The notes beneath the pieces are model-generated. The model made no database searches. It was not told the origin of the DNA and was given only the letters and a program-made list of their open reading frames with translations. A program made the position numbers and the translations under genes. From contig JAWWPG010000010.1 of assembly GCA_033850885.1 (NCBI GenBank), forward strand, positions 58,093 to 122,092: a stretch of 64,000 nucleotides of DNA. Direction: 5' to 3'. This DNA comes from Nocardioidaceae bacterium. GTDB taxonomy: Bacteria > Actinomycetota > Actinomycetes > Propionibacteriales > Nocardioidaceae. Positions 29,184 through 62,942 of this stretch are shown here, one piece after another; position 1 is the stretch's first letter, and every line of letters begins with the position of its first letter.

Positions 29184-29241
29184 GATCTGAGCGCTCGTCC
29201 GTTCCAGCAATGCTCAACACCCAACCGAAAGGCAGCACGAC

Positions 29242-30333: not shown

Positions 30334-30409
30334 CCCGTCACTCCCGGTCGGTCGGCACCGGCCGACCGGGAGAGCGGTTGTCCCCGGGGAACACCCACAA
30401 GGGAGACGC

Positions 30410-30766
30410 ATGACCCGCTACTGCTTCGTCCTGCAGGTTCGTCCCGACCTACTCGACGACTACAAGGCAAGGCACGCTGCGGTCTGGCCGGAGATGCTGC
30501 ACGCCCTGAAAGCGAACGACTGGAACCACTACTCGATCTTCGCTAGGCCGGACGGGATGCTCATCGGCTACGTCGAGTCCGACGACCTGGCACGAGCCCA
30601 GGACGCGATGGCGGCGACCGACGTCAACGCGCGCTGGCAGGCGGAGATGAGCCGTTACTTCGTGCTCCCCGACGATCGGTTGCCCGATGAGGAGCTCGTC
30701 CTGCTCGAGGAGATCTTCAACCTCGAGGACCAGCTGGAGGCAAGCGAGAGGCGAAACACCACATGA
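30410..30766 (+). CDS. rhaM: L-rhamnose mutarotase
   Basis: Internal ATG at 30410 after GGGAGA. 118 aa: MTRYCFVLQVRPDLLDDYKARHAAVWPEM..NYSIF, the typical RhaM signature. Confidence 0.9.
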   Translation: MTRYCFVLQVRPDLLDDYKARHAAVWPEMLHALKANDWNHYSIFARPDGMLIGYVESDDLARAQDAMAATDVNARWQAEMSRYFVLPDDRLPDEELVLLEEIFNLEDQLEASERRNTT

Positions 30767-33460: not shown

Positions 33461-33505
33461 GCACATGATGTCCGAGCCCCATCCCGACACGACAGGCGAG
33501 AAGCG

Positions 33506-35554
33506 ATGACGAACACAGAGCAAGCTGTGGAGGTGCGCGCGCTCGTCGAGCGCTCGAATCGACTTGGGGCCGATCCCAGGAACACCAACTACGCCGGGGG
33601 AAACACGTCCGTCAAGGCGGTCGCGGACGACCCGGTGACGTCTGAGCCCGTCGAGCTCTTGTGGGTCAAGGGGTCGGGCGGTGACCTCGGCACGCTCACC
33701 GCTGACGGGCTCGCCCTGCTACGTCTCGACCGGCTGCGGGCCCTCAGAGACGTCTATCCCGGCGTCGACCGCGAGGATGAGATGGTTGCCGCATTCGACT
33801 TCTGCCTTCACGGCAAGGGCGGAGCCGCGCCCTCCATCGACACGGCGATGCACGGTCTCGTGGACGCCGTCCACGTCGACCACCTCCACCCCGACTCCGG
33901 GATTGCGCTGGCTACCTCGGCCGACGGGGAGAGACTTACCCGCGAGTGCTTCGGTGACCGGGTGGTCTGGGTGCCGTGGCGGCGCCCAGGATTCCAGCTT
34001 GGACTCGACATCGCCGCAGTCAAGGAGGCCAACCCGCAGGCGATCGGCTGTGTGCTCGGCGGCCACGGGATCACGGCCTGGGGCGAGACCAGCGACGAGT
34101 GCGAGGCGCGCTCGCTCGACATCATCCGGACCGCCGAGGCTTTCATCATCGAGCACAGCGTGCGGGAGCCCTTCGGGCCGGTCGTCGACGGCTACCGGCC
34201 GCTGCCCGTCGACGAGCGGCGCCGCCGGGCAGCATCGCTGTTCCCACTGCTCCGCGGACTGGCGTCGACCGACCGACGGCAGGTGGGACACTTCACCGAC
34301 AGTGACGCGGTGCTCGACTTCGTCGCCCGGGCCGAGCATCCGCGGTTGGCCGCCCTCGGGACCTCCTGCCCCGACCACTTCCTGCGGACCAAGGTGCGCC
34401 CCATGGTGCTGGACCTCCCGGCGGACGCACCGCTCGCCGAGGTGGAGAAGCGGCTGCGCGAGCTGCATCTCCGGTACCGGGAGGACTACCAGACGTACTA
34501 CGAGCGGTACGCCGACAGCGTGACCCCTCCGATGCGTGGAGCGGACCCGGCGATCGTCCTGGTCCCCGGTGTCGGCATGTTCAGCTTCGGGGCCAACAAG
34601 CAGACGGCGCGAGTTGCCGGCGAGTTCTACGTCAACGCCATCAACGTCATGCGCGGGGCGGAAGGGTTGTCGACGTACCAGCCGATCGACGAACGGGAGA
34701 AGTTCCGGATCGAGTACTGGGCGCTGGAGGAGGCCAAGCTGCAGCGGATGCCCAAGCCGAAGCCGCTCGCCACGCGCGTCGCATTCGTGACCGGTGGTGG
34801 GTCCGGAATCGGGCGGGCGATCGCCCACCGGCTCGCCGCGGAAGGGGCATGCGTGATCGTCGCCGACCGTGACGCAGACAACGCCGTCTCCGTGGCCGGG
34901 GAGATCGGCTCAGCCGATGTCGCGGTCGCGGTGACCGCCGACGTCACCGACGACGAGCAGGTCGCCGCGGCGATTCGTGAAGGGGTGCTCGCCTTCGGCG
35001 GTGTCGATCTCGTCGTCAACAACGCGGGGTTGTCGATCTCCAAACCGCTGCTCGAGACGACGACGAAGGACTGGGACGTCCAACACGATGTGATGGCGAA
35101 GGGCTCGTTCCTCGTGTCGCGGGAGGCGGCGCGGGTGATGGGCGAACAGGGGTTCGGAGGCGACATCGTCTACATCGCCAGCAAGAACGCGCTGTTCGCC
35201 GGCCCGAACAACGTCGCGTACGGCGCGGCCAAGGCCGACCAGGCGCACCAGGTGCGGCTGCTCGCGGCCGAGCTCGGGGAGCAGGGGATCCGGGTCAACG
35301 GCGTCAACCCGGACGGCGTAGTCCGGGGCTCGGGCATCTTCTCGAGTGGCTGGGGTGCGCAGCGGGCCGCGGTCTACGGGGTCCCCGAGGACGAGCTCGG
35401 CGCCTTCTACGCGCAGCGCACTCTGCTGAAGCGGGAGGTCCTGCCGGAGCACGTCGCCAACGCGGTTTTCGTACTCACCGGCGGCGAGCTCTCTCACACC
35501 ACGGGGCTGCACATCCCGGTCGATGCCGGCGTGGCCGCCGCATTCCTGCGGTGA
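33506..35554 (+). CDS. rhaEW: Bifunctional rhamnulose-1-phosphate aldolase / lactaldehyde dehydrogenase (class II aldolase + SDR)
   Basis: 682 aa. N-terminal aldolase/adducin-type domain (NYAGGNTSVK, HLHPD) fused to an SDR domain (VTGGGSGIGRA, YxxxK region YGAAKAD). Confidence 0.9.
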   Translation: MTNTEQAVEVRALVERSNRLGADPRNTNYAGGNTSVKAVADDPVTSEPVELLWVKGSGGDLGTLTADGLALLRLDRLRALRDVYPGVDREDEMVAAFDFCLHGKGGAAPSIDTAMHGLVDAVHVDHLHPDSGIALATSADGERLTRECFGDRVVWVPWRRPGFQLGLDIAAVKEANPQAIGCVLGGHGITAWGETSDECEARSLDIIRTAEAFIIEHSVREPFGPVVDGYRPLPVDERRRRAASLFPLLRGLASTDRRQVGHFTDSDAVLDFVARAEHPRLAALGTSCPDHFLRTKVRPMVLDLPADAPLAEVEKRLRELHLRYREDYQTYYERYADSVTPPMRGADPAIVLVPGVGMFSFGANKQTARVAGEFYVNAINVMRGAEGLSTYQPIDEREKFRIEYWALEEAKLQRMPKPKPLATRVAFVTGGGSGIGRAIAHRLAAEGACVIVADRDADNAVSVAGEIGSADVAVAVTADVTDDEQVAAAIREGVLAFGGVDLVVNNAGLSISKPLLETTTKDWDVQHDVMAKGSFLVSREAARVMGEQGFGGDIVYIASKNALFAGPNNVAYGAAKADQAHQVRLLAAELGEQGIRVNGVNPDGVVRGSGIFSSGWGAQRAAVYGVPEDELGAFYAQRTLLKREVLPEHVANAVFVLTGGELSHTTGLHIPVDAGVAAAFLR

Positions 35555-35558
35555 GGAG

Positions 35559-37049
35559 GTGAGCCCCGGTGCGTCGGCCGCCTTTGCCGCCGTGGACCTG
35601 GGGGCGTCCAGCGGTCGGGTGATGGTCGGGCGAGTCGGCCGAGACCACCTCTCGCTCGCCGAGACCAACCGCTTCCCGAACGTTCCGGTGGACGTGTGTG
35701 GAACCCTGCACTGGGACATTCTCGCGCTGTACAACGGGATTCTCGAGGGGCTGCGCGCGGCCGTGCGGGTCGCGCCGGCGCTGGCGGGCATCGGGATCGA
35801 CTCCTGGGCCATCGACTACGGCCTGCTCGACGAGTCGGGCGAGCTCCTCGCCAACCCGGTGCACTACCGCGACCGCCGTACCGACGGTGTCATGGACGAG
35901 GTGCTCGCTCGAACCCCGGGGGAGCTTCTGTACCGGACCACGGGAGTCCAGCTGCTGCCGTTCAACACGGTCTTCCAGCTCGTTGCGGCCGCGGGGACGC
36001 CGATGCTTCGCAACGCGTCGAGGCTGCTGCTGATCCCAGACCTGTTGAGCTACTGGCTGACGGGATTGCTGGGCGCAGAGGTCACGAACGCGTCCACCAC
36101 GCAGCTGCTGGATGTCACCACCCGCTCGTGGGCCACGGACCTGATGCGGCGCCTCGGGATCGAGCCCGCCCTGTTCCCGCCGCTGCGACACCCTGGTGAT
36201 GCGGCCGGCGAGGTCACCGACCGGGTACGTCGCTTCCTCGGCGTCGAGGGCGACCTACCGGTGACCGCGGTGGGCTCGCACGACACGGCCTCGGCCGTCG
36301 TCGGTGTGCCCGCCTCCGGGACGCACTTCGCCTACATCTCGTGCGGGACCTGGTCGCTCGCCGGGGTCGAGCTGGACCGGCCGATCCTGTCGGAGGAGGG
36401 CAGGCTGGCAAACTTCACCAACGAGGCTGGCGTCGACGGCACCGTCCGCTACCTGCGCAACGTGATGGGACTCTGGCTGCTTCAGGAGTCGCTCCGGACC
36501 TGGGCCGCCATCGGCCTGCCGGCCGACCTCCCGACGCTGCTCAACGACGCGGCCCGGGTTCCGCGCTTCACCGCCCTGGTAGATCCCGACGACCCCGCGT
36601 TCCTCCCTCCCGGTGACATGCCCGCCCGCATCGCGGCCTTCTGCCAGCGGACCGGGCAGACGCCTCCGCAGAACCAGGCGGAGACCGTGAGGTGCATCCT
36701 GGACAGCCTTGCCCTGGCGTACCGGCGAGTGGTCCGGCAGGCGGCCGCGCTTTCCGGCGTCCCTGTCGAGGTCGTGCACATCGTCGGTGGCGGTGCGCGG
36801 AACGAGCTGTTGTGCCAGCTGACTGCGGATGCCTGCGCGCTGCCGGTCGTCGCCGGACCGGTCGAGGCTGCGGCGCTGGGGAATGTGCTCGTCCAGGCCC
36901 GCGCCGCTGGCGCCGCCCAGGGAGGCTTGGGCGAGCTGAGGGAGCTGACCCGTCGTACCCAGGAGCTGAGACGCTATGTACCCGGCGACGACGAGCAGGC
37001 CTGGACCGCCGCCGCCGCGCGGCTGGCGCCCGCGAGCCGGCGTACCTAG
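35559..37049 (+). CDS. rhaB: Rhamnulokinase (FGGY family)
   Basis: FGGY N-terminal motif AVDLGASSGRV and the C-terminal GGGARNELLCQ. Start is uncertain: GTG 35559, or ATG 35523 overlapping rhaEW. Confidence 0.85.
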   Translation: MSPGASAAFAAVDLGASSGRVMVGRVGRDHLSLAETNRFPNVPVDVCGTLHWDILALYNGILEGLRAAVRVAPALAGIGIDSWAIDYGLLDESGELLANPVHYRDRRTDGVMDEVLARTPGELLYRTTGVQLLPFNTVFQLVAAAGTPMLRNASRLLLIPDLLSYWLTGLLGAEVTNASTTQLLDVTTRSWATDLMRRLGIEPALFPPLRHPGDAAGEVTDRVRRFLGVEGDLPVTAVGSHDTASAVVGVPASGTHFAYISCGTWSLAGVELDRPILSEEGRLANFTNEAGVDGTVRYLRNVMGLWLLQESLRTWAAIGLPADLPTLLNDAARVPRFTALVDPDDPAFLPPGDMPARIAAFCQRTGQTPPQNQAETVRCILDSLALAYRRVVRQAAALSGVPVEVVHIVGGGARNELLCQLTADACALPVVAGPVEAAALGNVLVQARAAGAAQGGLGELRELTRRTQELRRYVPGDDEQAWTAAAARLAPASRRT

Positions 37050-37131: not shown

Positions 37132-39402
37132 ATGGTCGTCTCCGTGATCCTGCGAAGAGTGCTGGGCAGCTCCTGGCTGCCGATGATCGCGGCGCTGTTG
37201 GGGATCCTTCTGATCCTCGCCGACCGGAACGTCTCGGCCGGCGACCTCGCTAAGTTCGTCGCCTTCCTGGCCCTGACGGTCGCGTTGCCGGGTGTCTTCA
37301 CGTGGCGGCTCCTGTTGGCCCACCTGCACGCAGGCGAAGCCGACTCTCCGACCTGGTTGGAGGATCTCTCGCTCGGGACCATCTTCGGTTTCGGTGTGCA
37401 GCTGCCCGTCTACCTGCTCGGCGTCTGGATCAACATCCCGTTGCTCTTCCTCGTGCTCCCGGTGGTCGTCATCGTCCTCTCGCTGGCGACCGCCTTCGGG
37501 CGTCGTACCTGGACGCTGCCGACCAGGCAGATCGACGTCAGGGTCTCGTGGTCGCTCGCGGCCATCATGCTGTACGGCGTCGCCTGGCTCGGGCGCTACA
37601 TCTGGCCCCTGCACCCGCTGACGATACCGGCGTACCGGACGCCACGCGTGGACGAGACGTTCCACGAGGCCCTCATCTCCGAGCTCGTGAACCGGTTCCC
37701 GCCACAGATCCCGTACCTGCTGGGGACACCGCTGAACTACCACTGGTTCGCGCACGCCCAGATGGCCGCCGACCATTGGGCGACCGGGCTGGCCAGCCCC
37801 GAGATGCTGACCGAGCTGATGCCATCGGCGCTGCTCGCCCTCACCGTGCTGGGGCTCGGAGCCGTCGCTCTGCGGCTGACGAGCCGCTCTCTCGCCGCGG
37901 TCGTCGCGCCTGGGCTCCTGGTGGCCGGAGGGTTCTGCCTGATGGGGCCGCACTACGACGCGGGCGCCATCACCGAGCCTTACCTGTCGTGGAGGTTCGT
38001 CTCGAGCCCCTCTCAGGCGTACGGCTTCATGATGGCGCTGCCGGCCATCATGTTGATCCTCGAGGTGCTGCGACCCGACCGGAAGCCGCACCGGCTCACC
38101 TGGGTGACCCTTGCCCTGGCCCTCCTTGCTCTGTCCGGCTCGAAGGCGACTTTCATGCCGATCTTCGTCTGCGGAGGGATCGGGCTCGTGCTCGTCCAGC
38201 TCCTGCTCACGCACAGGTTCGACAAGAGAGCTGTGGGACTTGCCGGCCTGCTCGTCGCCGCGGCTGTCTTTGCCCAGCTGGTGATCCTCGGCGGAAGCAC
38301 TGGCGCTCTTGCACTGGACCCGTTCCGCACCGTCCAGACTGCCCTGGCGAAGCAGCACATCCCCGTCAGCCACGGGACGGAGCTGGCGATGACGGTCACT
38401 CTCCTGATCGGATGGCTGCTGTACGGCGCGGGCGTCTTCGGGCTGCTCCGCAACAAGCTATGGCGTGATCCCCGCACCGTGTTCATGGTGATCTGCATCC
38501 CGGCAGGAGTCTCTGTCGCGTTCCTCTTCTTCCGTTCCGGGCTCAGCCAGCTGTGGTTCCAGCGGTCGGTCGCCGAGCTCGTCGTCCTGCTGTCCGCCTG
38601 GGGCCTCACTCAGCTGGTGCCCAGTCCGGTGCCGCAGCGGCTGGGGCTTTACCTCGCGGGCCTTGCCGCGGGCGCGGGGCTGGCGGCGTATCTGGTCAGC
38701 GCATACGCGGAACGGGGCAACGGGGTAGTCATCAAGGCGACCGAGGCCGAGGTCGTTGCCACGGCGTTGGCGCCGTTCCTGGTGGTGGCCGTGTATTTCT
38801 TAGGTCGCCTCGTCCTGGGGGCGGCACATCGTCCGCGACCGGGGCCCGTCATGCTGCTGGCGGTGCTGCTCGGCCTCGGGCTCACGCACGTCTACTCGCT
38901 GGCGTACGACACCGTCTCCCAGAGGAGCGAGCACCATCTCCCACCGCCCAAGCCCCAGTTCGCGCCGGGCGGCGTCGACGCCGCCACCTGGATCGCCGAC
39001 CACTCCGGCCGGTACGACATCGTGGCCACCAACGCGCATTGCCGGCTGCCCGATACTGCGCTGTGCGACAACCGGAACTTCTGGGTGTCGGCGTACACCC
39101 AGCGCCGAGTCGTCATCGAAGGATGGGGCTACACCACAATCACCAACGCGGGCTACTCCGACACCGCCCGCAACCAGAACATCCCGAACCCTTACCCGGA
39201 GCGCCTCAAGATCAACGATGCGGCCTTCGAGAACCCCTCGCCCACGACCGTGAACCGGCTCGTCAACACGTACGGCGTCAAGTTCCTCTTCGTCGACAAG
39301 CAGTATCCCGCCGACGTCCCTGGCATGAAGGCGTTGAAGCCGCTCCTGCACAAGAAGTTCCAGAACCACAACTACGTCGTCTTCAAGGTGGCTCCGAACT
39401 AA
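37132..39402 (+). CDS. Large polytopic membrane protein, GT-C-fold glycosyltransferase candidate
   Basis: 756 aa from the first ATG after the rhaB stop. At least 12 predicted TM helices. An acidic motif (RVDETFHEALISEL) follows the early TM helices, as in GT-C enzymes. About 190-aa soluble C-terminal domain. Confidence 0.5.
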   Translation: MVVSVILRRVLGSSWLPMIAALLGILLILADRNVSAGDLAKFVAFLALTVALPGVFTWRLLLAHLHAGEADSPTWLEDLSLGTIFGFGVQLPVYLLGVWINIPLLFLVLPVVVIVLSLATAFGRRTWTLPTRQIDVRVSWSLAAIMLYGVAWLGRYIWPLHPLTIPAYRTPRVDETFHEALISELVNRFPPQIPYLLGTPLNYHWFAHAQMAADHWATGLASPEMLTELMPSALLALTVLGLGAVALRLTSRSLAAVVAPGLLVAGGFCLMGPHYDAGAITEPYLSWRFVSSPSQAYGFMMALPAIMLILEVLRPDRKPHRLTWVTLALALLALSGSKATFMPIFVCGGIGLVLVQLLLTHRFDKRAVGLAGLLVAAAVFAQLVILGGSTGALALDPFRTVQTALAKQHIPVSHGTELAMTVTLLIGWLLYGAGVFGLLRNKLWRDPRTVFMVICIPAGVSVAFLFFRSGLSQLWFQRSVAELVVLLSAWGLTQLVPSPVPQRLGLYLAGLAAGAGLAAYLVSAYAERGNGVVIKATEAEVVATALAPFLVVAVYFLGRLVLGAAHRPRPGPVMLLAVLLGLGLTHVYSLAYDTVSQRSEHHLPPPKPQFAPGGVDAATWIADHSGRYDIVATNAHCRLPDTALCDNRNFWVSAYTQRRVVIEGWGYTTITNAGYSDTARNQNIPNPYPERLKINDAAFENPSPTTVNRLVNTYGVKFLFVDKQYPADVPGMKALKPLLHKKFQNHNYVVFKVAPN

Positions 39403-39417
39403 GGGAATACTGGTCGC

Positions 39418-40329
39418 ATGCGTGGAATCATCCTGGCGGGCGGCGCCGGAACGAGGCTGCACCCGATCACGCGTGGCGTGAGCAAGCAGCTGCTCCCGGT
39501 CTACGACAAGCCGATGATCTACTACCCCTTGTCGACGCTCATGCTCGCGGGGATCCGCGACGTGCTGGTGATCACCACCCCGCACGAGGCGCCGGCCTTC
39601 GAACGCCTGCTAGGTGACGGGTCACAGTTCGGGGTGTCGATCGCGTACGCCCGCCAGCCGGAGCCGACCGGGTTGGCGCAGGCGTTCGTCATCGGTGCGG
39701 ACTTCGTCGCAAAGGACCGGTGTGCGCTGATCCTGGGTGACAACATCTTCTACGGGCAGGGGCTCGGCCTTCAGCTCAAGCGCTACGCCGATGTCGAAGG
39801 CGCGGCCATCTTCGCCTACTGGGTCACCGACCCGCAGGCATACGGGGTGGTGGAGTTCGACGCTCGGGGCCGTGCGCTCTCCCTCGAGGAGAAGCCGACC
39901 TCCCCACGCAGCAACTACGCCGTCCCGGGCCTGTACTTCTACGACAACGATGTCGTCGACATCGCAAAGAACCTCAAGCCTTCGGCGCGAGGGGAGTACG
40001 AGATCACCGGTGTCAATCAGGTCTATCTCGACCGGAACGCCCTACAGGTCGAGGCTCTGCCGCGGGGCACGGCCTGGTTGGACACGGGGACGTTCGAGTC
40101 GCTCAACGACGCCAGCAACTTCATCCGCACCGTGGAGAAGCGCCAAGGGCTGAAGATCGGTGCGCCCGAGGAAGTTGCGTGGCGGCGCGGCTTCCTGACC
40201 GACGACGAGCTCCGCGACCGCGCCGAGGGGATGCTCAAGAGCGGTTACGGCCAGTACCTGCTGGGCCTGCTGGAGCGCCGAGACCTGCAGTGGAGCAGAT
40301 CCCATCCGAGTCCGGCTGGCGGCCGCTGA
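39418..40329 (+). CDS. rmlA: Glucose-1-phosphate thymidylyltransferase
   Basis: [48 protein letters not shown] is the canonical RmlA N-terminus. Confidence 0.95.
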
Positions 40330-40420
40330 GGCGGTTTGCTCGGGGGCGTCAATCGAACTCAGCACCGAGATCCGGCGGGCGCTGAGCCACTGGTCAGCAG
40401 ACACCCCCGCCCGCCCGGGT

Positions 40421-40505
40421 GCGTTTGCCTGGCTTGCCAGGCAAACACGCCGTTTGCCACCCAGGCCTGCCTGGCAAACGGATCCGCCTGGCTTGCCAGG
40501 CAAAC
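40421..40505. repeat. Compact copy of the stacked-palindrome element (inverted relative to 18737-18921)
   Basis: Perfect 11-bp-arm palindrome GTTTGCCTGGC-TT-GCCAGGCAAAC (40423-40446), a 30-nt hairpin (40451-40480) and GCCTGGC-TT-GCCAGGC (40486-40501). Positions 40453-40472 are the exact reverse complement of 18869-18888. Confidence 0.75.
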
Positions 40506-40557
40506 CCCCGAACGGGCGACACCCTGGCGCCCCGACGACGGCACCACCCAAACGGCC

Positions 40558-41547
40558 CTACCGGGTCAGGGCAGCGCGCGTCTTGAGTGGCTCCCACCAC
40601 TCCCGGTTGCCGGCGTACCACGCCACGGTGTCCGCCAGCCCGTCAGCGAAGTCGACGGCCGGTGCGTAGCCGAGCTCCTCGCCGATCTTGGTGATGTCCA
40701 GCGAGTAACGCAGGTCATGGCCGAGCCGATCCTCGACCAGGACCACGCTGTCCCAGGTGGCACCGCAGGCCTGGAGAAGCCTCTCGGTCAGCTCGCGGTT
40801 GGTGAGCTCGGTGCCACCGCCGATGTTGTAGACCTCCCCGGGACGTCCCTTCTCCAGCACCAGGTGGATTGCGCGGCAATGGTCGTCGACGTGCAACCAG
40901 TCACGGATATTGGCGCCTTCGCCGTACAGCGGAACCTTGGCACCGTCGATCAGATTCGTGACGAACAACGGGATGACCTTCTCGGGAAACTGGTACGGCC
41001 CGTAGTTGTTCGAGCAACGCGTGATGCACACGGGTAACCCGTGGGTGCGGAAGTAGGACCGGGCGATCAGGTCGCTGCCGGCCTTCGACGCGGAGTACGG
41101 CGAGTTCGGCTCGAGGGGCTGGCTCTCGTCCCAACTGCCGCTCGCGATGGAGCCGTACACCTCGTCCGTCGACACGTGCACGAACTTGTCGATGCCATGC
41201 CTCAGCACGGAGTCCAGCAGCGTCTGGGTGCCGACGACGTTCGTCATGACGAAGTCGGCGGCGCCGAGGATCGACCTGTCGACGTGGCTCTCGGCGGCGA
41301 AGTGCACGACCACGTCGGCCTCGCCGCTCAGGCTGTCGACGAGAGATCGGTCCAGGATGTCGCCCTCGACGAACCGAAGCCTGTCATCGTCTCGCACCGG
41401 CGCCAGGTTGGCGATATTCCCCGCATACGTGAGCTTGTCGAGCACGGTGATGCGGTCGGGTACAGACATCCCCCACGCGTCGCCGAGCACCCGGCGGACA
41501 TAGTGGCTCCCGATGAAGCCGGCTCCTCCGGTGACGAGGATCCTCAT
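40558..41547 (-). CDS. rmlB: dTDP-glucose 4,6-dehydratase
   Basis: MRILVTGGAGFIGSHY, catalytic YSASKA and the extended SDR pattern. ATGA overlap with the upstream methyltransferase. Confidence 0.95.
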   Translation of the reverse strand: MRILVTGGAGFIGSHYVRRVLGDAWGMSVPDRITVLDKLTYAGNIANLAPVRDDDRLRFVEGDILDRSLVDSLSGEADVVVHFAAESHVDRSILGAADFVMTNVVGTQTLLDSVLRHGIDKFVHVSTDEVYGSIASGSWDESQPLEPNSPYSASKAGSDLIARSYFRTHGLPVCITRCSNNYGPYQFPEKVIPLFVTNLIDGAKVPLYGEGANIRDWLHVDDHCRAIHLVLEKGRPGEVYNIGGGTELTNRELTERLLQACGATWDSVVLVEDRLGHDLRYSLDITKIGEELGYAPAVDFADGLADTVAWYAGNREWWEPLKTRAALTR

Positions 41548-42320
41548 GCGTCGCTCTCTCCTTCCTCAGGTACGTCCGATGTATGACGGCCTCGGCGACC
41601 GTCTTTGACCGCCGCAACCAGCACGGAGGACCCGAAGGGCATGTCACGGGTGCGCAGCAGCCTCTGCTCGGCTCGAGTCAGCGCCATGAACAGCCGGTCC
41701 ATGGCCGGAGATACCTGCGGCAGCCGGCTGGCCTCCGGCCCGGGCCCGCGCCGCAGCCGCCGTACCACGCGCTCGGCGGCGAAGAACGGGAACACCGCGC
41801 CGAACGCGTACGTGACCCGGAGCACGGTCAGGTCGGTCTGCCGAACTGCCGCGAGCAAGCGCCGCTTCGTGTAGCGCCGGTAGTGCCCGGCTCGTACGTC
41901 GTGGTCGGACCACGCCCACTGGTAGGCCGGCACCGACATCAGCAGCCGCCCGCCGGGAGCCAACACCCGGGCGAGCTCCCGGATGGCCACGGACTCGGGG
42001 TCGCAGTGCTCCAACACGTCGAAAGCCGCTACTACGTCGAAAGCCCCGTCCGGGAACGGCAGCGCGAGCGCAGAGGCGCAGGTGCCGCGCCCGGGCCTCA
42101 ACCCACGTGGGTCGACGTCGATCGTGAACCGGTCGTGCGCGCCCTGCATCCACCCCACGCTCGGCCCGTCGGCGCTGCCCACGTCGAGCACCCGAGATGG
42201 ATCGCCGAGAAAGCCCCCCAGGGCGGTCCCGAGGAGTCCGGCCCGGGCGCGGTACCACCAGTAGTCCGGCTGCTCGAGCGATGACGACCCGGACTGCGTC
42301 GGAGAGGCCACGTCTGTCAC
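41544..42320 (-). CDS. Class I SAM-dependent methyltransferase
   Basis: Motif I VLDVGSADG. Post-I/II region (FDVVAAFDVLEHC, LAPGGRLLMSVP). N-terminal YWWYRAR motif. Confidence 0.8.
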   Translation of the reverse strand: MTDVASPTQSGSSSLEQPDYWWYRARAGLLGTALGGFLGDPSRVLDVGSADGPSVGWMQGAHDRFTIDVDPRGLRPGRGTCASALALPFPDGAFDVVAAFDVLEHCDPESVAIRELARVLAPGGRLLMSVPAYQWAWSDHDVRAGHYRRYTKRRLLAAVRQTDLTVLRVTYAFGAVFPFFAAERVVRRLRRGPGPEASRLPQVSPAMDRLFMALTRAEQRLLRTRDMPFGSSVLVAAVKDGRRGRHTSDVPEEGESDA

Positions 42321-42332
42321 TGTAGGCGTCGT

Positions 42333-43484
42333 TCAGGCGGCCGCGGCGAGCGCGCGCAGGAACGACTCCACGACCCGCTCGGAGTCCGCGTCCGTAAGGT
42401 TGTTGTAGAAGGGCAGCCTGATCAGCCGGCCACTGACGTCGTCCGTCACCGGGCACTCGGTCTCGACGGCGGAGAACCGGCGGCCCGCGTCGGAGCTGTG
42501 CAGCGGGACGTAGTGGAACGTCGCCTGGATCCCATCGCCTCGCATCTTGGCGAGCACGGAGTCCCGGGTCGGACGGTCCTTCAGCAGCAGGTAGAACATG
42601 TGGTACGCGATTCGGCAGCTGTCGGGAACCACGGGCAGCCGCAGCTCGAGCTCGTCGGCGAGCGGAGCCAGCGCTCGCTCGTAGCGCTCGTAGACGTCAC
42701 GCCGCTTGGCCTGGATGGCCTCCGACTTCTCCAGCTGGGCGCACAGATACGCCGCGAGGATATCGGAGAGACCGAAGGACGAGCCGGTGTCCTTCCAGGA
42801 GTACTTGTCCACCTGGCCGAGGAAGAAGGCTCGCCGGTTCGTGCCCTTGTCGTAGAGCACCCGAGCCCGGTCGACGTCGCGGGCGTCGTTGAGGACGAGC
42901 GCCCCGCCCTCACCACAATTGATGTTCTTGGTCTCGTGGAAGCTCAGCGTCGAGAACCTGCCGAGACTGCCGAGCGGCTGGTCGTGCCAGCTGGCGAACA
43001 ACCCGTGGGCGTTGTCCTCGATGACGGCGACGTCGGGCCGTCCGGCGAGCGCCTTGCGGATGCCGTCGACGTCGCACGCGACCCCGGCGTAGTGGACGGG
43101 GACGACCGCCCGGACGGTGTCGTCGAGCAACGTCGCCAGATGTCGTGCGTCGAGACCGAGGGTCTCCGGCTCGATGTCACAGAAGAGCAGCTTCGCGCCC
43201 TGCCGGGCGAAGGCCAACGCGGTCGTCGTGAACGTGAACGACGGGACGATCACCGAGTCGCCTGGCCGCAGGTCGAGCATCAAGGACGTCAGCTCGAGGG
43301 CCGACGTGCACGACGTGGTGAGCAGGACCTCCTCGGCGCCGCTCCACTCGAGCAGCATCTCGATCGAGCGCTTCGAGAACGGTCCCGATGTCGACATGTG
43401 CCCGCTGTCGACCGCCTGCCTGATGTACTCGAGCTCCGCGCCTTCGACGCAGGCCCGGTTGAATGGAATGTCTGAAGAGGGCAT
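42333..43484 (-). CDS. DegT/DnrJ/EryC1/StrS-family aminotransferase (WecE-like dTDP-4-keto-6-deoxyhexose 4-aminotransferase)
   Basis: 383 aa. TSCTSALE, IVPSFTFTTTA and SFHETKN (PLP Lys) motifs. Confidence 0.88.
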   Translation of the reverse strand: MPSSDIPFNRACVEGAELEYIRQAVDSGHMSTSGPFSKRSIEMLLEWSGAEEVLLTTSCTSALELTSLMLDLRPGDSVIVPSFTFTTTALAFARQGAKLLFCDIEPETLGLDARHLATLLDDTVRAVVPVHYAGVACDVDGIRKALAGRPDVAVIEDNAHGLFASWHDQPLGSLGRFSTLSFHETKNINCGEGGALVLNDARDVDRARVLYDKGTNRRAFFLGQVDKYSWKDTGSSFGLSDILAAYLCAQLEKSEAIQAKRRDVYERYERALAPLADELELRLPVVPDSCRIAYHMFYLLLKDRPTRDSVLAKMRGDGIQATFHYVPLHSSDAGRRFSAVETECPVTDDVSGRLIRLPFYNNLTDADSERVVESFLRALAAAA

Positions 43485-43507
43485 CTGGATACCGTATCTC
43501 GTGGACG

Positions 43508-44254
43508 TCAGTCGACTCGCCAGGGCAGCGGTCTGCCGAGGCGCGCACTCAGCCGGACGTCGCTCTCCCGGAAGTAGTCCCGCAGCCGTCGTGCCAGTCC
43601 GTCGTCCAGCATCGGCGGCGGTCCGTCGCTCCGGTTGACGGGACGTCCTTCGTCTGGAGGGACGAAGCCAGGGTCCACGCCGATGGAGGCATAGAGGTCA
43701 CCGGCCGTCGACGTGCCGGAGATCACATCCTCGAGGAACCGGACGTGCACGGTGTCGGGGAAGCTGGCATACCAGGGCTCCAGGTAGTCGAGGTACCGAC
43801 CGCGCTCGAGGTAGGCGAACGGCGAGACCGACGAGACGCTCGTGTCCCAGGCTCGCGGACCTTGAAGGTTCTCCTCGAGGGCTTGCGCCAGCGACCGCTC
43901 CTCCAGCCCGTGCGAGGTGCTGAACCGCCAGTTCGACACGGCCCGGGCGACCGGGTCCCGAAGCTGTACGACGATGTCAGCTCCGCCGAGCATGGCCGCG
44001 GCACGCGCCGCCGCCTCGGCGTCCTCCAGGTAGCTCGTGCTCTTCTCGCCGAGGACGGACTCCGAGGTCGCGTGGGCGAAGTACGTCGCGTCGTACCAGT
44101 CGAGCCCCTTCGCCACGAGGACGTCGGACATGAAGACCTTCGGCTCGGGACGGGCTGGGCGCGCCATCGTGATATCGGGGTGGGCGTCGAGCACAGCGTT
44201 CAGGTAGGTCGTGCCACACCTCTGCCCGCCGATGACGAGGAGGTGTCGGGTCAA
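43508..44254 (-). CDS. PAPS-dependent sulfotransferase
   Basis: 5'-PSB loop at the N-terminus (VIGGQRCGTTYL) and a 3'-PB motif (LRDPVARAVSNW). The TTG start overlaps the stop of the upstream GT2 (TTGA). Confidence 0.72.
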   Translation of the reverse strand: MTRHLLVIGGQRCGTTYLNAVLDAHPDITMARPARPEPKVFMSDVLVAKGLDWYDATYFAHATSESVLGEKSTSYLEDAEAAARAAAMLGGADIVVQLRDPVARAVSNWRFSTSHGLEERSLAQALEENLQGPRAWDTSVSSVSPFAYLERGRYLDYLEPWYASFPDTVHVRFLEDVISGTSTAGDLYASIGVDPGFVPPDEGRPVNRSDGPPPMLDDGLARRLRDYFRESDVRLSARLGRPLPWRVD

Positions 44255-45276
44255 CGCTTCACCCGCTCGACCACGTGGTAGGTCTGCTCGGCGCTGACGG
44301 CGTTCAGCGTTCGGACGACGTACTCTCCGAGCATCGACAGCAGCGCGATGGTCACCCCGTTGAACACCGCGAGCAGCACGACCAGCGTGGTCCAGCCTGG
44401 AACCGCGGTGTTCGAGGTGAGCCCGTGGATGAGGTAGGCACCGCCGATGAGGAAGCTCAGGATCGAGAACAGGAAGCCGCCCACGGCTGCCAGTCGCAGC
44501 GGGAACAACGTGTAGCTGAAGAGGATCGTGAGCACCAGCCGGACGATGCGGCTCGTGCTGTAGCGGCTCTTGCCTACCTTCGCCGGGTCGTGCCTCACCG
44601 GTACGTTCGAGCGGTTGCTCGAGTACATCAGTGCCTGGCCGGTGATGTAGGGGTACGCCGTCCGGGACGCGCAGATCCGGTCGACGACGTCGCGTCGCAG
44701 GATGCGGAAGTTCGACACGACCAGGTCAGGCGGCTGGCCGAACACCCGCCGGTTGATCCTGCCGATCAGGCTGCTGCCGAGCTTGCGGTAAGCGGCCGAC
44801 TTCTTGGACTCGAAGGCACCGAACACGACGTCGCGGCCCTTCATCGCCTCGTCGATGAGCACCCTGATCTGGTCCGGCGGGTTCTGCAGGTCGTCATCCA
44901 TCGTGATGACGTAGTCGCCTGTCACCTCCCGGAAACCGGCCAGGTTCGCATTGTGCTGACCGTAGTTGCGGAGCAGGTTGACGGCGACAACGTGCGGGTT
45001 CCGCCGTGCTCGCTCCGCGATGACGTCCCAGCTGCCGTCGCTGCTGCCGTCGTTGACAAGGATCAGCTCGTAGGAGAGGCCCTGACCCTCCAGCTCGGAC
45101 ACGATCCGGTCGACCGTGTCGCCTACCTGCCCTGCGCTGTTGAACACGGGGACCACGATTGAGTAGGTGAACGAGTGCGGATCGAGCAGCGGCTCGTCCG
45201 GCGAGTGGTATGCGGTCAGGGGCGCCAGCGGGGTCAGCGGGGCATGATCCGGCTGCGTCGAGCTGATGTCGTTCAT
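44251..45276 (-). CDS. GT2 polyprenyl-phosphate glycosyltransferase (ArnC/GtrB/DPM1-like)
   Basis: Internal ATG at 45276. GT-A core (SIVVPVFN, LILVNDGSSD, MDDDLQNPP) plus two C-terminal TM helices (LAAVGGFLFSILSFLIGGAYL, TTLVVLLAVFNGVTIALLSML). Confidence 0.85.
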   Translation of the reverse strand: MNDISSTQPDHAPLTPLAPLTAYHSPDEPLLDPHSFTYSIVVPVFNSAGQVGDTVDRIVSELEGQGLSYELILVNDGSSDGSWDVIAERARRNPHVVAVNLLRNYGQHNANLAGFREVTGDYVITMDDDLQNPPDQIRVLIDEAMKGRDVVFGAFESKKSAAYRKLGSSLIGRINRRVFGQPPDLVVSNFRILRRDVVDRICASRTAYPYITGQALMYSSNRSNVPVRHDPAKVGKSRYSTSRIVRLVLTILFSYTLFPLRLAAVGGFLFSILSFLIGGAYLIHGLTSNTAVPGWTTLVVLLAVFNGVTIALLSMLGEYVVRTLNAVSAEQTYHVVERVKR

Positions 45277-45379
45277 CTCCGTCCTACGGCTGCGGCGGGC
45301 TGTCCCACAACGACTGTATCCGACCGCTCCGGCGCGCGGCGCCTTCACTTGGCCCGTGGCGACTAGTGTGAGTGGGGCC

Positions 45380-46615
45380 ATGCGCGCAAGGGTTAACGAC
45401 ACCAAGGCTCTGGCCGCAGGCTCGGCGCTCAGCGGACTGCTGGCCTATGCGTTCTTCGTCATCGCCACCCGCGCTCTCGGGGCGACAGCGGCTGCTCCGG
45501 TCTCCGTGCTCTGGACCTACTGGAGCTTCGCGGCGGCAGCTCTCACCTTTCCCGTCCAGCACTGGATCGCCCGCTCGGTCGCCGCCCTCAAGGGAGGTGA
45601 GGGCGCCATCCACGATGCCTTGCCCCGCGTCGCGTTCGCCGTCACGGTCGCCGCCCTGGTGTCCGGCCTGCTCGCCTGGCTGGGCCGGGACGCGCTCTTT
45701 CACCGCACCGACCCGTGGTTTCCCCTGCTGGTGGTCTGTGTGACGCTCGGCTCCGGTTTCGTCGGCGTGGTCCGCGGCGGGTTGTCAGCCCGGCACCGGT
45801 TCGTCAGCGTTGCCTGGGCGCTGGTGGCGGAGAACGCACTGCGGTGCTTGGCGGCGCTCGTCCTGGTGGCCATCGGGGCGCACGCCTCCTTGAGCTTCGG
45901 GATCTGCCTGGCCATGGGTTCGCTCGTGGGGTTCTGCTGGCCGTCCTCGTTCCGGTTCTCCTCCGAAGGGGGACCTGCCGGCAGCGAGTCCCCCCTCGCG
46001 TTTCTCGGGGGAGCGGCCGGCGGTCAGCTGGTTGGTCAGGCGATCCTCACGGGTGGGCCAGTGCTGCTTGCGTTGAGCGGCGGCTCGCCGGCCCAGGTGA
46101 CCGCGTTGTTCGCGGCGTTGGCGCTCTTCCGGGCGCCGTACACACTGGCCCTCGGTCTCGTGTCCCAGCTCACCGGCAGGTTGACGACACTCGTGGTCGA
46201 GCGGGCGCACGGCGAGCTGCGCCGAGTGAGGCTCGCGATTCTCGGGTCCACCGCCGGGCTGGTCGTCGTGGCGGGGGCGCTCGGCGCGCTGACCGGACCG
46301 CTTCTCCTGCCGCGAATCTTCGGCGAGCACGTGCGTATCGACTGGCTCCCCTCGACGCTCGTCGCCGTGGGGAGCGCCCTTGCGTTGGCGAACCTGGTGA
46401 CGACGATCTCGATCCTGGCCCAGAGCAGAAGCCACGCCATCGCCCGCGCCTGGATCCTGGCACTGATCGGCGCAGCGGTGGCCTTCGTGGTGGTCCCGGC
46501 GTCCCCGTTGGTGCGGACGTGCTGGGTCTTCAGCGCCGCCGAGGCCGTGGCGTTCGCCGCGCTCGTGCTCGAAGAGATACGCGGCTCGTCGAAGCTGGCG
46601 ATGTCCCATTCCTGA
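45380..46615 (+). CDS. Polysaccharide-unit flippase-like membrane protein (MOP/Wzx-type)
   Basis: 411 aa from the internal ATG, with about 12 TM helices. Divergent from the GT2 operon across a 103-nt intergenic region. Assignment rests on topology and context only. Confidence 0.55.
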   Translation: MRARVNDTKALAAGSALSGLLAYAFFVIATRALGATAAAPVSVLWTYWSFAAAALTFPVQHWIARSVAALKGGEGAIHDALPRVAFAVTVAALVSGLLAWLGRDALFHRTDPWFPLLVVCVTLGSGFVGVVRGGLSARHRFVSVAWALVAENALRCLAALVLVAIGAHASLSFGICLAMGSLVGFCWPSSFRFSSEGGPAGSESPLAFLGGAAGGQLVGQAILTGGPVLLALSGGSPAQVTALFAALALFRAPYTLALGLVSQLTGRLTTLVVERAHGELRRVRLAILGSTAGLVVVAGALGALTGPLLLPRIFGEHVRIDWLPSTLVAVGSALALANLVTTISILAQSRSHAIARAWILALIGAAVAFVVVPASPLVRTCWVFSAAEAVAFAALVLEEIRGSSKLAMSHS

Positions 46616-60563: not shown

Positions 60564-60659
60564 GACTGCTCCTCGGAGCTCGTGGCCCCCTCGTGAATGC
60601 CTGTCGCACTCGCGTTCTACGCCATGCTGGCGACCGGCCAGATCGCTGTCAAGGCACAC

Positions 60660-61088: not shown

Positions 61089-61160
61089 GGTGTTCTCCTG
61101 GGAAGGTGTTCGTAAGGGTGGTGAGAGCCCGAGCACGTGGTCGTGTTGGGCGGGTCTCGG

Positions 61161-61916: not shown

Positions 61917-61922
61917 GTCAGT

Positions 61923-62693: not shown

Positions 62694-62942
62694 GTGGTTC
62701 CCTTTCTTCCTGCGCTCGACGCTGAAGCGTCTGAAAGAGTCAGCAGTTTCGGCGGCTCATTCGAGAGGCGCTCATGTACGAATCGGAGCCGACGGGAGAT
62801 CGGATTGGACCGCAAACTCAAGGAAGCCCTTTCTCAGGTTTCCTTTAGGGGCTGACCTGCTCAGGCCTTTATCTGTCCAATCCAAAGGTCGATCGGTCAC
62901 GAACTCTCCTCAGAAGTTCCACGCGGCGAACAGGAGACGAAG

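Follow-up and report, generated by a model that had tools for sequence, protein, structure and literature searches.

In a locus that encodes both a sugar aminotransferase and a sulfotransferase, the question is which sugar is made, where it is modified and how it reaches the cell envelope. The locus occupies positions 37132-46615 of the window (the whole 64-kb stretch of DNA that was analysed, from an uncultured soil actinobacterium), and its eight genes encode RmlA, RmlB, an aminotransferase (AT), a methyltransferase (MT), a sulfotransferase (ST), a GT2 glycosyltransferase, a flippase and a 756-aa GT-C protein (Table 1). The likeliest product of this compact and widely conserved set is a sulfated 4-amino-6-deoxy sugar for envelope decoration, and we consider it probable that the whole pathway is a self-contained lipid-carrier glycosylation module working like Arn and Gtr. 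The evidence base is sequence and predicted structures, and the hosts are uncultured metagenome-assembled genomes (MAGs).

Organization and conservation of the locus

All eight ORFs were confirmed where a preliminary description had placed them, with the identities that it had assigned, and direct reading of the junctions agreed with the five-gene minus-strand operon that it had proposed, with TTGA and ATGA overlaps and gaps of at most 23 nt. At the GT2/ST junction (TTGA) the ST start codon lies over the GT2 stop codon, gaps of 23 nt and 12 nt follow at the ST/AT and AT/MT junctions, respectively, and an ATGA overlap joins the rmlB start to the methyltransferase stop. On the plus strand, 15 nt separate the GT-C gene from rmlA, which follows it. 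One correction concerns the flippase, whose proposed start at 45266 (449 aa) was wrong; the first Met of the orthologue alignments and all gene callers place it at 45380 (411 aa), and the flippase gene is therefore separated from the GT2 operon by a 103-nt divergent region instead of overlapping the GT2 start. This region presumably holds the promoters of both transcription units; a sigma-70 consensus was not found in it, in a scan that is uninformative for this organism. The convergent gap between rmlA and rmlB has a predicted RNA fold of -77.4 kcal/mol (z = -9.4), and its palindrome core recurs at 18740-18918, where none would be expected by chance; the gap with its hairpins probably either stops transcription from both sides or represents a REP-like repeat.

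Table 1 Genes and intergenic regions of the locus, with window coordinates.
Feature	Coordinates	Strand	Basis or remarks
Polytopic membrane glycosyltransferase, GT-C fold	37132..39402	+	756 aa, AF2 + Foldseek
rmlA, glucose-1-phosphate thymidylyltransferase	39418..40329	+	TIGR01207, 479.8 bits (cut-off 360.65)
Convergent intergenic gap	40330..40557	none	Three GC-rich palindromic hairpins
rmlB, dTDP-glucose 4,6-dehydratase	40558..41547	-	TIGR01181, 436.2 bits (cut-off 365.1); last gene of the five-gene operon
Class I SAM methyltransferase (MT), accessory tailoring enzyme, probably an O-methyltransferase	41544..42320	-	Methyltransf_11/23
WecE-type PLP aminotransferase (AT)	42333..43484	-	NF008687 (WecE), 469.7 bits (cut-off 375)
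Cytoplasmic PAPS-type sulfotransferase (ST), heparan-sulfate NST/3-OST kind	43508..44254	-	Sulfotransfer_3, Sulfotransfer_1
Polyprenyl-phosphate GT2, ArnC/GtrB/DPMS type	44251..45276	-	341 aa, PF00535
Divergent intergenic region, GT2 operon vs flippase gene	45277..45379	none	103 nt, sequence read
MOP-superfamily (Wzx-like) flippase	45380..46615	+	411 aa

The preliminary description had allowed that the genes might not be co-conserved in relatives. Co-conservation proved strong: about 15 MAG loci from Nocardioidaceae/Propionibacteriales share the module, with the gene order kept, a GT-C identity of 50-65% and flanks that are unrelated. The core (flippase, GT2-ST-AT and RmlA/B) is also found in four other metagenomic contigs (L086, labelled as a Sporichthyaceae MAG, L087, L088 and L089), with a GT2/ST overlap of 4 nt in L086, L087 and L089. 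No characterised equivalent of the gene combination was found in literature searches, in agreement with the preliminary description, which named none.

Predicted synthesis of the nucleotide sugar

Equivalog-level matches indicate that RmlA and RmlB supply dTDP-4-keto-6-deoxyglucose. The best solved relatives of the aminotransferase are E. coli WecE 4piw (7e-102) and 6blg, and membership of this family predicts a dTDP-4-amino-4,6-dideoxyhexose as its product, with a predicted galacto configuration (probably Fuc4N). Neither rmlC nor rmlD, nor any N-acyl- or formyltransferase domain, was present in any called and scanned gene of the 64-kb window, where a few small ORFs at 47.7-50.2 kb were covered solely by a precomputed Pfam table. 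The earlier statement that rmlC and rmlD are missing from the window thus held, but its corollary that the sugar is not L-rhamnose was over-stated for a single 64-kb MAG window, since the two genes may lie elsewhere in the genome. Two of the loci (L011 and L023) carry another SDR plus an NDP-sugar dehydrogenase in place of RmlB, so that the family does not draw on a single donor sugar, a point against the pathway proposed here.

A sulfotransferase in the N-acyltransferase slot

The sulfotransferase scored above the gathering thresholds of both Sulfotransfer_3 (38.7 bits) and Sulfotransfer_1 (34.0 bits), and its best PDB relatives are the N-sulfotransferase domain of NDST1 (1.2e-11) and 3-OST-3 (2.2e-11). 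An RCGTT loop, E37 and R99-D-P-x-x-R-x-x-S107 are conserved among 20 members, and homologues form at least 1525 clusters, all metagenomic among the matches listed. No gene for PAPS synthesis was found in the window, which counts against the proposed pathway. In paralogous Nonomuraea clusters with the same GT-C family, a WecD-like GNAT adjoins the aminotransferase and there is no sulfotransferase; sister clusters (L062, L043 and L058) combine WecE, a WecD-like GNAT and an ArnC-like GT2. Among the loci examined, GNAT and sulfotransferase were mutually exclusive as neighbours of the aminotransferase, and the sulfotransferase never occurred without the aminotransferase. Since the sulfotransferase stands here where sister clusters have the GNAT, we infer that it fills the N-acyltransferase slot. 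An N-acyltransferase had been described as missing, which the window scan bore out, but it is not simply absent, as the sulfotransferase occupies the place of the WecD-like GNAT. This replacement makes N-sulfation a serious hypothesis, and it is also favoured by the closest solved relative of the enzyme, an N-sulfotransferase. The enzyme would sulfate the nucleotide sugar or the polyprenyl-phosphate-linked sugar on the cytoplasmic face, most likely on the 4-amino group, in lieu of N-capping by WecD or the ArnA formyltransferase.

The same pathway could instead involve O-sulfation of the 2- or 3-hydroxyl, leaving a free 4-amine and a zwitterionic envelope sugar, which we regard as possible, if less probable. 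The final product of the Arn system has a free amine, and characterised bacterial carbohydrate sulfotransferases are mostly O-sulfotransferases. In addition, 3-O-sulfotransferases match our enzyme as well as N-sulfotransferases do, the catalytic Glu is common to both kinds, and we identified no residue that discriminates between them. Against O-sulfation stand the mutual exclusion and the constant company of the aminotransferase described above, and a free-amine, O-sulfated donor would give no pull to the unfavourable transamination step. ArnC-type enzymes moreover reject an unblocked amine, the N-blocked donor being the sole one taken by ArnC (PMC12690121). The proposed pathway also draws support from Haloferax, in which a sulfated hexose linked to a lipid phosphate is known and Agl15 is a component needed once the complete glycan has been assembled on DolP (PMC3892788).

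An accessory methyltransferase

A further possibility is that the amine is capped by the methyltransferase through N-methylation or N,N-dimethylation of the desosamine type, with the sulfotransferase acting on another position or molecule. The methyltransferase is similar in size to sugar N,N-dimethyltransferases, which also belong to class I, and its gene sits between those of the aminotransferase and RmlB in the operon. We nevertheless consider this very unlikely, given that the methyltransferase is missing in 8 of the 15 orthologous loci, all of which keep the aminotransferase, sulfotransferase and GT2, and that homologues of 54-61% identity reside in clusters with GtrA and an SDR and without an aminotransferase. 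Its PDB matches (E<=0.01) likewise include no named sugar N-methyltransferase, and the nearest sugar-active one is a D-glucose O-methyltransferase. Because it is missing in about half of the orthologous clusters and has homologues in amine-free ones, the enzyme is accessory and optional, not tied to the amine, and is probably an O-methyltransferase that may add its group in some genomes.

Proposed lipid loading, flipping and transfer

The GT2 matches the ArnC profile NF007986 over its full length, although its 180 bits fall short of the equivalog cut-off. It also aligns throughout with ArnC 9hwj (2e-48), GtrB 5ekp (3e-33) and DPMS 5mlz. Its DDDLQN sequence (a DxDLQ motif) aligns with the DADLQN motif described for ArnC (PMC12690121), whereas R128, the residue proposed to hold the lipid phosphate in ArnC, is Phe here, which counts against our preferred reading. 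On its family and motifs, the enzyme would transfer the sugar to polyprenyl phosphate.

The AF2 model of the flippase (pLDDT 85.6) has as its best Foldseek match the lipid III flippase WzxE (9g9p, TM 0.62), followed by MurJ and MATE proteins. PF01943 is matched by 9 of 12 orthologues (best 3e-8); the copy in the window, at 17.8 bits, falls below the gathering score, which weakens the assignment. The protein is predicted to flip the anionic lipid-linked sugar outward, although the classical cargo of MOP flippases is a diphosphate-linked oligosaccharide and not a monophosphate-linked monosaccharide. A minimal Wzx-dependent polysaccharide pathway, in which an undecaprenyl-diphosphate-linked unit is flipped and the 756-aa protein polymerises or ligates it, would suit the cargo of WzxE, a diphosphate-linked trisaccharide ending in Fuc4NAc, and the source annotation of flippase homologues as 'O-antigen/teichoic acid export membrane protein'. 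It is highly improbable, however, as no conserved cluster has an initiating phosphoglycosyltransferase or a second glycosyltransferase, the sole glycosyltransferase is of the full-length ArnC/GtrB/DPMS type with its DxDLQ motif, sister clusters use GtrA, and the 13 Foldseek matches of the 756-aa protein at E<=1e-3 are all GT-C transferases and not Wzy or WaaL.

The 756-aa protein has no Pfam match even at E<=1, no NCBIfam match and no PDB sequence match. Its AF2 model (pLDDT 91.6, pTM 0.92) gave 13 Foldseek matches in the PDB at E<=1e-3, all of them GT-C enzymes (DPY19, STT3, ArnT, AftA and PglB), with TM-scores of 0.35-0.5 that count against the assignment. Among 32 members of the family, D174 (in DETFH), Y203, H204, F206 and C645 do not vary, and at least 90% of them have C637. 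The family is large (374 loci in species genomes, 1225 representatives of 50%-identity clusters, E<=1e-30) and has no Pfam or NCBIfam model. The predicted structure suggests that the protein is the final transferase, moving the sugar from polyprenyl-phosphate-sugar onto a cell-wall glycopolymer or a protein outside the cytoplasm. A protein acceptor, with the enzyme as a distant oligosaccharyltransferase relative, seems rather unlikely and concerns the acceptor step only: the best Foldseek matches, DPY19 and STT3, modify proteins, and the C-terminal extracytoplasmic domain (~155 aa), with a conserved EGWGY motif, resembles the C-terminal globular domain of AglB-S2 (3vu0, TM 0.50, E 0.07), but ArnT and AftA, whose acceptors are lipids and glycans, reach similar scores, neither E-values nor TM-scores tell the subfamilies apart, and no candidate acceptor gene is co-conserved among orthologous loci. 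The GT-C partner also differs between loci, L087 having a PMT_2-family GT-C, which agrees with a donor module that stays constant while the transferases it supplies differ in acceptor specificity.

Comparison with known systems

The preliminary description had likened the locus to the Arn and Gtr division of labour, that is, cytoplasmic tailoring, lipid loading, flipping and transfer by a GT-C enzyme, and each component has gained independent support, including the two C-terminal hydrophobic helices of its ArnC/GtrB-like GT2, the MOP fold of the divergent 12-TM Wzx-like protein (structure prediction and Foldseek), and the GT-C-like acidic loop DETFH and GT-C fold of the 756-aa protein. Sister clusters with the same GT-C family (L037 and its relatives) follow the classical three-component design with a GtrA flippase, which supports the GT-C protein as terminal transferase. 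The flippase here, in contrast, is a MOP protein of 12 helices and differs from GtrA and ArnE/F, and a locus that otherwise follows the Arn/Gtr scheme has a sulfotransferase where an N-acyltransferase is usual.

Gene content and setting of the locus

GC3-based gene calling combined with ORF listing reproduced the eight genes of the preliminary description, as well as the junctions it had given for the minus-strand operon (TTGA, a 23-nt gap, a 12-nt gap and ATGA, in this order). The start of the flippase gene was corrected to 45380, which gives a product of 411 aa and leaves a divergent intergenic region of 103 nt. The window, with a G+C content of ~68%, had also been described as having no rmlC or rmlD, and the locus as missing an N-acyl/formyltransferase; none of these was found in any scanned gene of the window; for rmlC and rmlD this absence holds for those genes and is not proof that the genome is without them. 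A PAPS-synthesis gene was likewise found in no scanned gene of the window. A promoter and terminator scan of the locus, which is uninformative for this organism, returned nothing above chance.

Coordinates and assignments of the features discussed (window positions unless a relative's contig is named)
Feature	Coordinates	Strand	Product, match or content
GT-C gene	37132-39402	+	756-aa membrane protein
rmlA		+	TIGR01207, 479.8 bits (cut-off 360.65)
Operon GT2-ST-AT-MT-rmlB	45276-40558	-	five genes, as in the next five rows
GT2		-	full-length match to ArnC
Sulfotransferase (ST)		-	Sulfotransfer_3 and Sulfotransfer_1, each above the gathering score
Aminotransferase (AT)		-	WecE equivalog NF008687, 469.7 bits (cut-off 375); best solved relative E. 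coli WecE (4piw), 7e-102
Methyltransferase (MT)		-	class I, Methyltransf_11/23
rmlB		-	TIGR01181, 436.2 bits (cut-off 365.1)
Flippase gene	45380-46615	+	411-aa membrane protein
Convergent rmlA/rmlB gap	40330-40557		three hairpins built on GCCTGGC-NN-GCCAGGC
Example hairpin in this gap	40423-40446		GTTTGCCTGGCTTGCCAGGCAAAC
Same palindrome core, another intergenic region	18740-18763, 18895-18918		
L-rhamnose uptake and catabolism cluster	25557-37049		ABC ATPase, two permeases, binding protein, TIM-barrel isomerase, aldolase/SDR fusion, FGGY kinase
Gene within the L-rhamnose cluster	30763-32301		512-aa protein, no Pfam match
Subtilase-sortase run	59184-62756	-	subtilase, cupredoxin-like protein, sortase, 277-aa protein with no Pfam match
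Kdp and purine regions	976-5453, 8888-17343		KdpC, KdpD, KdpE-like response regulator; PurL-like, amidophosphoribosyltransferase-like, PurM-like genes
Contig L011	8128-10541		NDP-sugar 6-dehydrogenase/SDR region
Contig L023	4987-7445		NDP-sugar 6-dehydrogenase/SDR region
Contig L087	14676-20768		NuoD-like gene after the Wzx-like gene, adjoining Hexapep acetyltransferase, Methyltransf_28, Sulfotransfer_2 and GT2
Contig L088	13947-16168		GT-C position, called as two ORFs (244 and 512 aa)
Contig L090 (= L027)	1-6883		GT-C paralogue, Wzx-like flippase, NuoD-like protein, GT2, 362-aa Sulfotransfer_3 protein, in this order

The closest named relatives are Nocardioidaceae and Propionibacteriales MAGs, and a protein identical to the aminotransferase is also encoded on other contigs, including a JGI metagenome contig of 136 kb. 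All close relatives found were metagenomic; a cluster of the sulfotransferase type turned up in no cultured strain. The left flank of the locus, which itself sets out from dTDP-glucose, is formed immediately upstream by what looks like a complete set of genes for L-rhamnose catabolism and ABC-type uptake, and the right flank contains a gene of the mycothiol S-transferase family (DinB-like) and a DUF1801 gene. A functional tie between the locus and the neighboring L-rhamnose genes was rejected because in each of the other genomes examined the cluster has different neighbors. Tailoring of a natural-product sugar was rejected as well, since the locus has no PKS, NRPS or GT1, its GT2 is membrane-anchored and a GT-C protein is present.

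Several features of the window were recorded in passing. The RNA fold of the gap between rmlA and rmlB reaches -77.4 kcal/mol (z = -9.4), and the palindrome core of its hairpins recurs twice in another intergenic region where none is expected by chance; these palindromes have the appearance of a family of REP-like repeats or of a two-way terminator. The subtilase-sortase run may be a sortase-dependent surface protein set, and the Kdp and purine biosynthesis regions are ordinary chromosomal context.

Conservation of the cluster and its sister clusters

Co-conservation was surveyed by tblastn over 80 genome loci. Close orthologues were recovered at ~15 distinct loci (GT-C identity 50-65%), all keeping the gene order of the window, with the GT-C gene and rmlA on one strand, rmlB-(MT)-AT-ST-GT2 on the other and the flippase gene divergent, in flanks that are unrelated from locus to locus. 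Seven of these loci carry the methyltransferase and eight lack it. On contigs L011 and L023 both RmlB and the methyltransferase are replaced by an NDP-sugar dehydrogenase and an SDR, and the aminotransferase (69% identity), sulfotransferase and GT-C protein are kept; the GT2 is also kept on L011, and the L023 contig ends before the GT2 region. The SDR falls below every equivalog cut-off, scoring 164 bits for dTDP-glucose dehydratase, 153 for UDP-4-keto-pentose synthase and 145 for the ArnA C-terminal domain, and the two loci may represent a 4-aminopentose (Arn-like) version of the system.

Homologues of the sulfotransferase were also located on four other contigs, one labeled as a Sporichthyaceae MAG (L086) and three without a taxon label (L087-L089), each of which carries a flippase, GT2-ST-AT, RmlB and RmlA. 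The GT2 and sulfotransferase genes overlap by 4 nt in L086, L087 and L089. In L087 a PMT_2-family GT-C takes the place of the window family, PMT_2 being the Pfam family that includes ArnT, and in L086 the place is held by an unrelated 591-aa protein; on L089 no GT-C was obvious on the contig. Kinship of the window GT-C family with the L087 PMT_2 protein was rejected (hhalign probability 0.5%), as was the 591-aa membrane protein of L086 as a relative of the latter, for which BLASTP shows no relationship. L088 retains the window-family GT-C at its usual position, with the gene split into two ORFs, which may reflect a frameshift, loss of function as a pseudogene or misassembly.

Two further cluster types share the GT-C family of the window with other donor genes. 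In an amine-free type (L037 and relatives) the GT-C protein is accompanied by two proteins with GtrA domains, an ArnC-like GT2, an SDR, RmlA/B and a homologue, 54-61% identical, of the window methyltransferase, and there is no aminotransferase; because methyltransferase homologues thus occur without an aminotransferase, the methyltransferase is not tied to the amine. The 12 PDB matches of the window methyltransferase at E≤0.01 are all generic class I methyltransferases and include none named as a sugar N-methyltransferase, so that no sequence similarity to solved sugar N,N-dimethyltransferases of the TylM1/DesVI kind was detected. An N-acyl type, found in Nonomuraea (L062, L043 and L058), combines the GT-C protein with WecE (49% identity and 531 bits in L062), an ArnC-like GT2, RmlA/B and a GNAT that adjoins the aminotransferase. 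Homologous GNATs occur in Streptosporangium (L061), Sphaerisporangium (L082) and Microtetraspora (L060), and among NCBIfam models WecD, the dTDP-Fuc4N acyltransferase, matches the GNAT best in each of the three loci tested, although weakly (26-30 bits). The GNAT-type clusters have neither a sulfotransferase nor a Wzx-like gene; the sulfotransferase-type clusters have neither GNAT nor GtrA. The system shows modular evolution: the same GT-C family works with any of three donor modules (N-acetylated, unaminated/methylated or sulfated), and one donor module works with different GT-C families.

Contig L090 represents a second type of sulfotransferase-linked cluster among the relatives, with a GT-C paralogue and a sulfotransferase that differs from that of the window. 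Its NuoD-like protein (400 aa) carries a Complex1_49kDa domain, and the same NuoD-like gene recurs in the glycan cluster of L087.

Predicted structures of the two membrane proteins

The identities of the GT-C protein and the flippase come from structure prediction, profile searches of PDB sequences having found nothing. The 756-aa protein has no Pfam match at E≤1 and no NCBIfam match, and a search of PDB sequences with a 32-sequence GT-C profile returned no match. Its AlphaFold model (pLDDT 91.6, pTM 0.92) was compared with the PDB using Foldseek, where all 13 matches at E≤1e-3 are GT-C enzymes (DPY19, STT3, ArnT, AftA and PglB), with probability 1.00 and modest TM-scores of 0.33-0.51; as modeled, the membrane domain has a GT-C fold. 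D174, the Asp of the DETFH motif, is invariant together with Y203, H204 and F206 across the 32 members, down to 24% identity. It starts a 61-residue loop that holds two amphipathic helices and follows the fifth, not the first, transmembrane helix. Hydropathy and helix parity predict this loop to be extracytoplasmic, and it would correspond to the canonical GT-C loop EL1 preceded by four extra N-terminal helices. The C-terminal domain of ~155 residues contains a Cys pair, of which C645 is invariant and C637 is present in at least 90% of members. Residues ~600-756 form an extracytoplasmic domain with a weak structural likeness to the globular domain at the C-terminus of AglB-S2, an archaeal oligosaccharyltransferase (3vu0, TM 0.50, E 0.07), and a conserved R[RQ]x[VL][IV]EGW[GA]Y motif in it loosely recalls the WWDYG motif of oligosaccharyltransferases. 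By sequence, the protein belongs to no described family (PMT_2, ArnT, STT3, AftA, Emb and others). Its own family was found at 374 loci in species genomes, and a search at E≤1e-30 gave 1225 representatives of clusters at 50% identity; these ~1200 representatives define a large GT-C family that lacks a Pfam or NCBIfam model.

For the 411-aa protein, the best Foldseek match of the predicted structure is WzxE, the lipid III flippase of enterobacterial common antigen (ECA; TM 0.62), followed by MurJ and MATE proteins (TM 0.5-0.68 across these matches, probability 1.00), and the model has a MOP fold with ~12 transmembrane helices in two bundles. PF01943 matches 9 of 12 flippase orthologues at E≤1 (best 3e-8), the window protein itself scoring 17.8 bits, below the gathering cut-off of 28.2, and a 12-sequence flippase profile found no match among PDB sequences. 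This flippase family accompanies sulfotransferases in the loci seen, the L090 cluster type included, and tblastn detected no GtrA homologue in any sulfotransferase-type locus.

Glycosyltransferase, sulfotransferase and the proposed site of sulfation

The GT2 aligns over residues 38-337 of 341 with residues 10-312 of ArnC, its closest solved relative (2e-48), its other full-length relatives being GtrB (3e-33) and DPMS, and it carries two hydrophobic helices at its C-terminus, in keeping with the architecture of polyprenyl-phosphate glycosyltransferases, which have juxtamembrane helices and two C-terminal transmembrane helices. In its GT-A domain DDDLQN is aligned to DADLQN of ArnC, DxDLQ being the metal/base motif common to polyprenyl-phosphate glycosyltransferases (PMC12690121). 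Among the lipid-phosphate Arg positions of ArnC, R137 is kept, R131 and R205 are read from the alignment as Lys, and R128 as Phe. With 179.7 bits against a cut-off of 529 for the ArnC equivalog NF007986, the enzyme is ArnC-like and not an ArnC orthologue, and it is predicted to move a sugar onto polyprenyl monophosphate.

The sulfotransferase (248 aa) starts directly with the PAPS loop and has neither signal peptide nor transmembrane helix, which makes it a cytoplasmic enzyme. Among solved structures it is closest to the N-sulfotransferase domain (NST) of NDST1 (1.2e-11) and to 3-O-sulfotransferase 3 (2.2e-11). The alignment to both spans the 5'-phosphosulfate loop, a Glu and the 3'-phosphate-binding RxxxxRxxS. 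The loop RCGTT, in which the loop Lys is Arg, the Glu and RDPxxRxxS are invariant or present in at least 90% of 20 members, and the Glu is aligned with the Glu of NST and 3-OST that we take to be catalytic.

Where the sulfate would go is the point on which readings diverge. We tentatively propose, as a possibility that still falls short of an even chance, that the enzyme N-sulfates the 4-amino group, so that a 4-sulfamido-4,6-dideoxyhexose (a sulfamate sugar) would be carried on polyprenyl phosphate and N-sulfation would replace N-acetylation or N-formylation. Three observations argue for the 4-amine: the sulfotransferase occupies the gene slot of the WecD-like acyltransferase of the sister clusters, its closest solved relative is an N-sulfotransferase, and ArnC accepts only an N-blocked donor (PMC12690121). 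The main rival is O-sulfation of the sugar with the amine left free; NST and 3-OST match the sulfotransferase equally well, the evidence for N over O coming from gene context, and no residues separating N- from O-sulfotransferases were identified, the NDST1 paper giving PAP-binding residues only.

The pathway draws on assignments made at the level of families (RmlA/RmlB, WecE-type aminotransferase, PAPS-type sulfotransferase, polyprenyl-phosphate GT2, MOP flippase and GT-C); the order of its steps and all substrates we infer. On the most economical reading, the dTDP-4-keto-6-deoxyglucose would first be aminated to a dTDP-4-amino-4,6-dideoxyhexose. Cytoplasmic sulfation of this sugar would follow, joined by O-methylation in some of the genomes. 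The sugar would then be loaded on polyprenyl phosphate and the lipid-linked sugar flipped, after which the GT-C protein would hand the sugar to an extracytoplasmic acceptor. By analogy with Haloferax, in which a DolP-linked hexose is sulfated and a need of this for translocation has been suggested (PMC3892788), sulfation after lipid loading is possible.

If N-sulfation is true, sulfation would be the step that pulls transamination forward and licenses the ArnC-type transferase, and the anionic head group would explain a MOP flippase in place of GtrA. To our knowledge, and within the literature searched, no bacterial envelope glycan with an N-sulfated sugar has been described before; this one would occur widely in uncultured soil Actinomycetota, and a GT-C family not recognized until now would deliver it. 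This raises the testable question of whether N-sulfation can substitute for the N-formyl "ticket" required by ArnC. Sulfated bacterial glycans are rare, and through the module the envelope of uncultured but abundant soil Actinomycetota would acquire a sulfated amino sugar. It is common but unstudied, the sulfotransferase alone having at least 1525 homologue clusters, all metagenomic among those listed. The enzyme would be a soluble bacterial candidate for amino-sugar sulfation, of interest for chemoenzymatic glycan synthesis.

Comparison with known systems

The sulfotransferase shares with heparan sulfate NDST and 3-OST the aligned 5'-phosphosulfate loop, catalytic Glu and 3'-phosphate motif. 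The animal enzymes, however, are Golgi-lumenal and act on polymers, whereas the protein described here is cytoplasmic, has Arg for the loop Lys and has a monosaccharide donor as its predicted substrate. The low-salt N-glycan pathway of Haloferax volcanii (Agl5-Agl15) likewise involves a sulfated hexose on dolichol monophosphate, and for it sulfation was proposed to be necessary for translocation and the cluster includes dTDP-sugar genes (PMC3892788; PMC4022621). That system, in contrast, is archaeal and has no amino sugar, and its sulfated hexose serves as the linking sugar in a tetrasaccharide moved to Asn. Published work comes nearest to the locus with an Actinoplanes EPS cluster that has sulfotransferases of the heparan-sulfate type and uses a Wzx/Wzy route, in a 2026 paper that places bacterial sulfated polysaccharides exclusively in cyanobacteria (PMC13390465).

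With the Fuc4NAc branch of ECA (RmlA/RmlB/WecE/WecD, WzxE) the locus shares RmlA, RmlB, a WecE orthologue and a flippase whose best match is WzxE, and the Nonomuraea sister clusters add a WecD-like GNAT. In ECA, however, the sugar is N-acetylated and added by the cytoplasmic glycosyltransferase WecF to a diphosphate-linked trisaccharide, whereas here WecD, WecA, WecF and WzyE are absent and the sugar is predicted to sit singly on a monophosphate carrier.

Gtr-type systems (GtrA/GtrB/Gtr*, CsbB/GtcA/YfhO, GacI/J/L and PpgS/Rv3789/Rv3779) also decorate an envelope polymer, on the extracytoplasmic side, by means of a polyprenyl-phosphate GT2, a flippase and a GT-C, and true GtrA genes occur in sister clusters that share the GT-C family of the window. 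Unlike the locus, they use ready-made UDP-sugars with no dedicated tailoring and small GtrA flippases, and we know of no Gtr-type system that carries a sulfated sugar. As in the Arn pathway (Ugd, ArnA, ArnB, ArnC, ArnD, ArnE/F and ArnT), which modifies lipid A with L-Ara4N, a 4-keto sugar nucleotide would be transaminated by a DegT-family enzyme and its amine capped before an ArnC-type GT2 loads polyprenyl phosphate, with flipping and GT-C transfer following; the likeness extends to the PMT_2-family GT-C of L087 and to the NDP-sugar dehydrogenase and SDR of L011 and L023. The differences are that the donor is a dTDP-6-deoxyhexose and not a UDP-pentose, that a PAPS sulfotransferase stands in place of the N-formyltransferase and deformylase, neither of which was found in the window or the orthologous clusters, that a 12-helix MOP flippase replaces the small ArnE/F pair, that the GT-C comes from a family lacking Pfam and NCBIfam models, and that the Gram-positive host lacks lipid A. 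No characterized cluster of this composition was found in the literature searched. The locus functions like Arn and Gtr; it lies outside Arn by its lack of a formyltransferase/deformylase and of a small flippase and by its ArnC equivalog score, and outside Gtr by its lack of GtrA, and its chemistry is potentially new.
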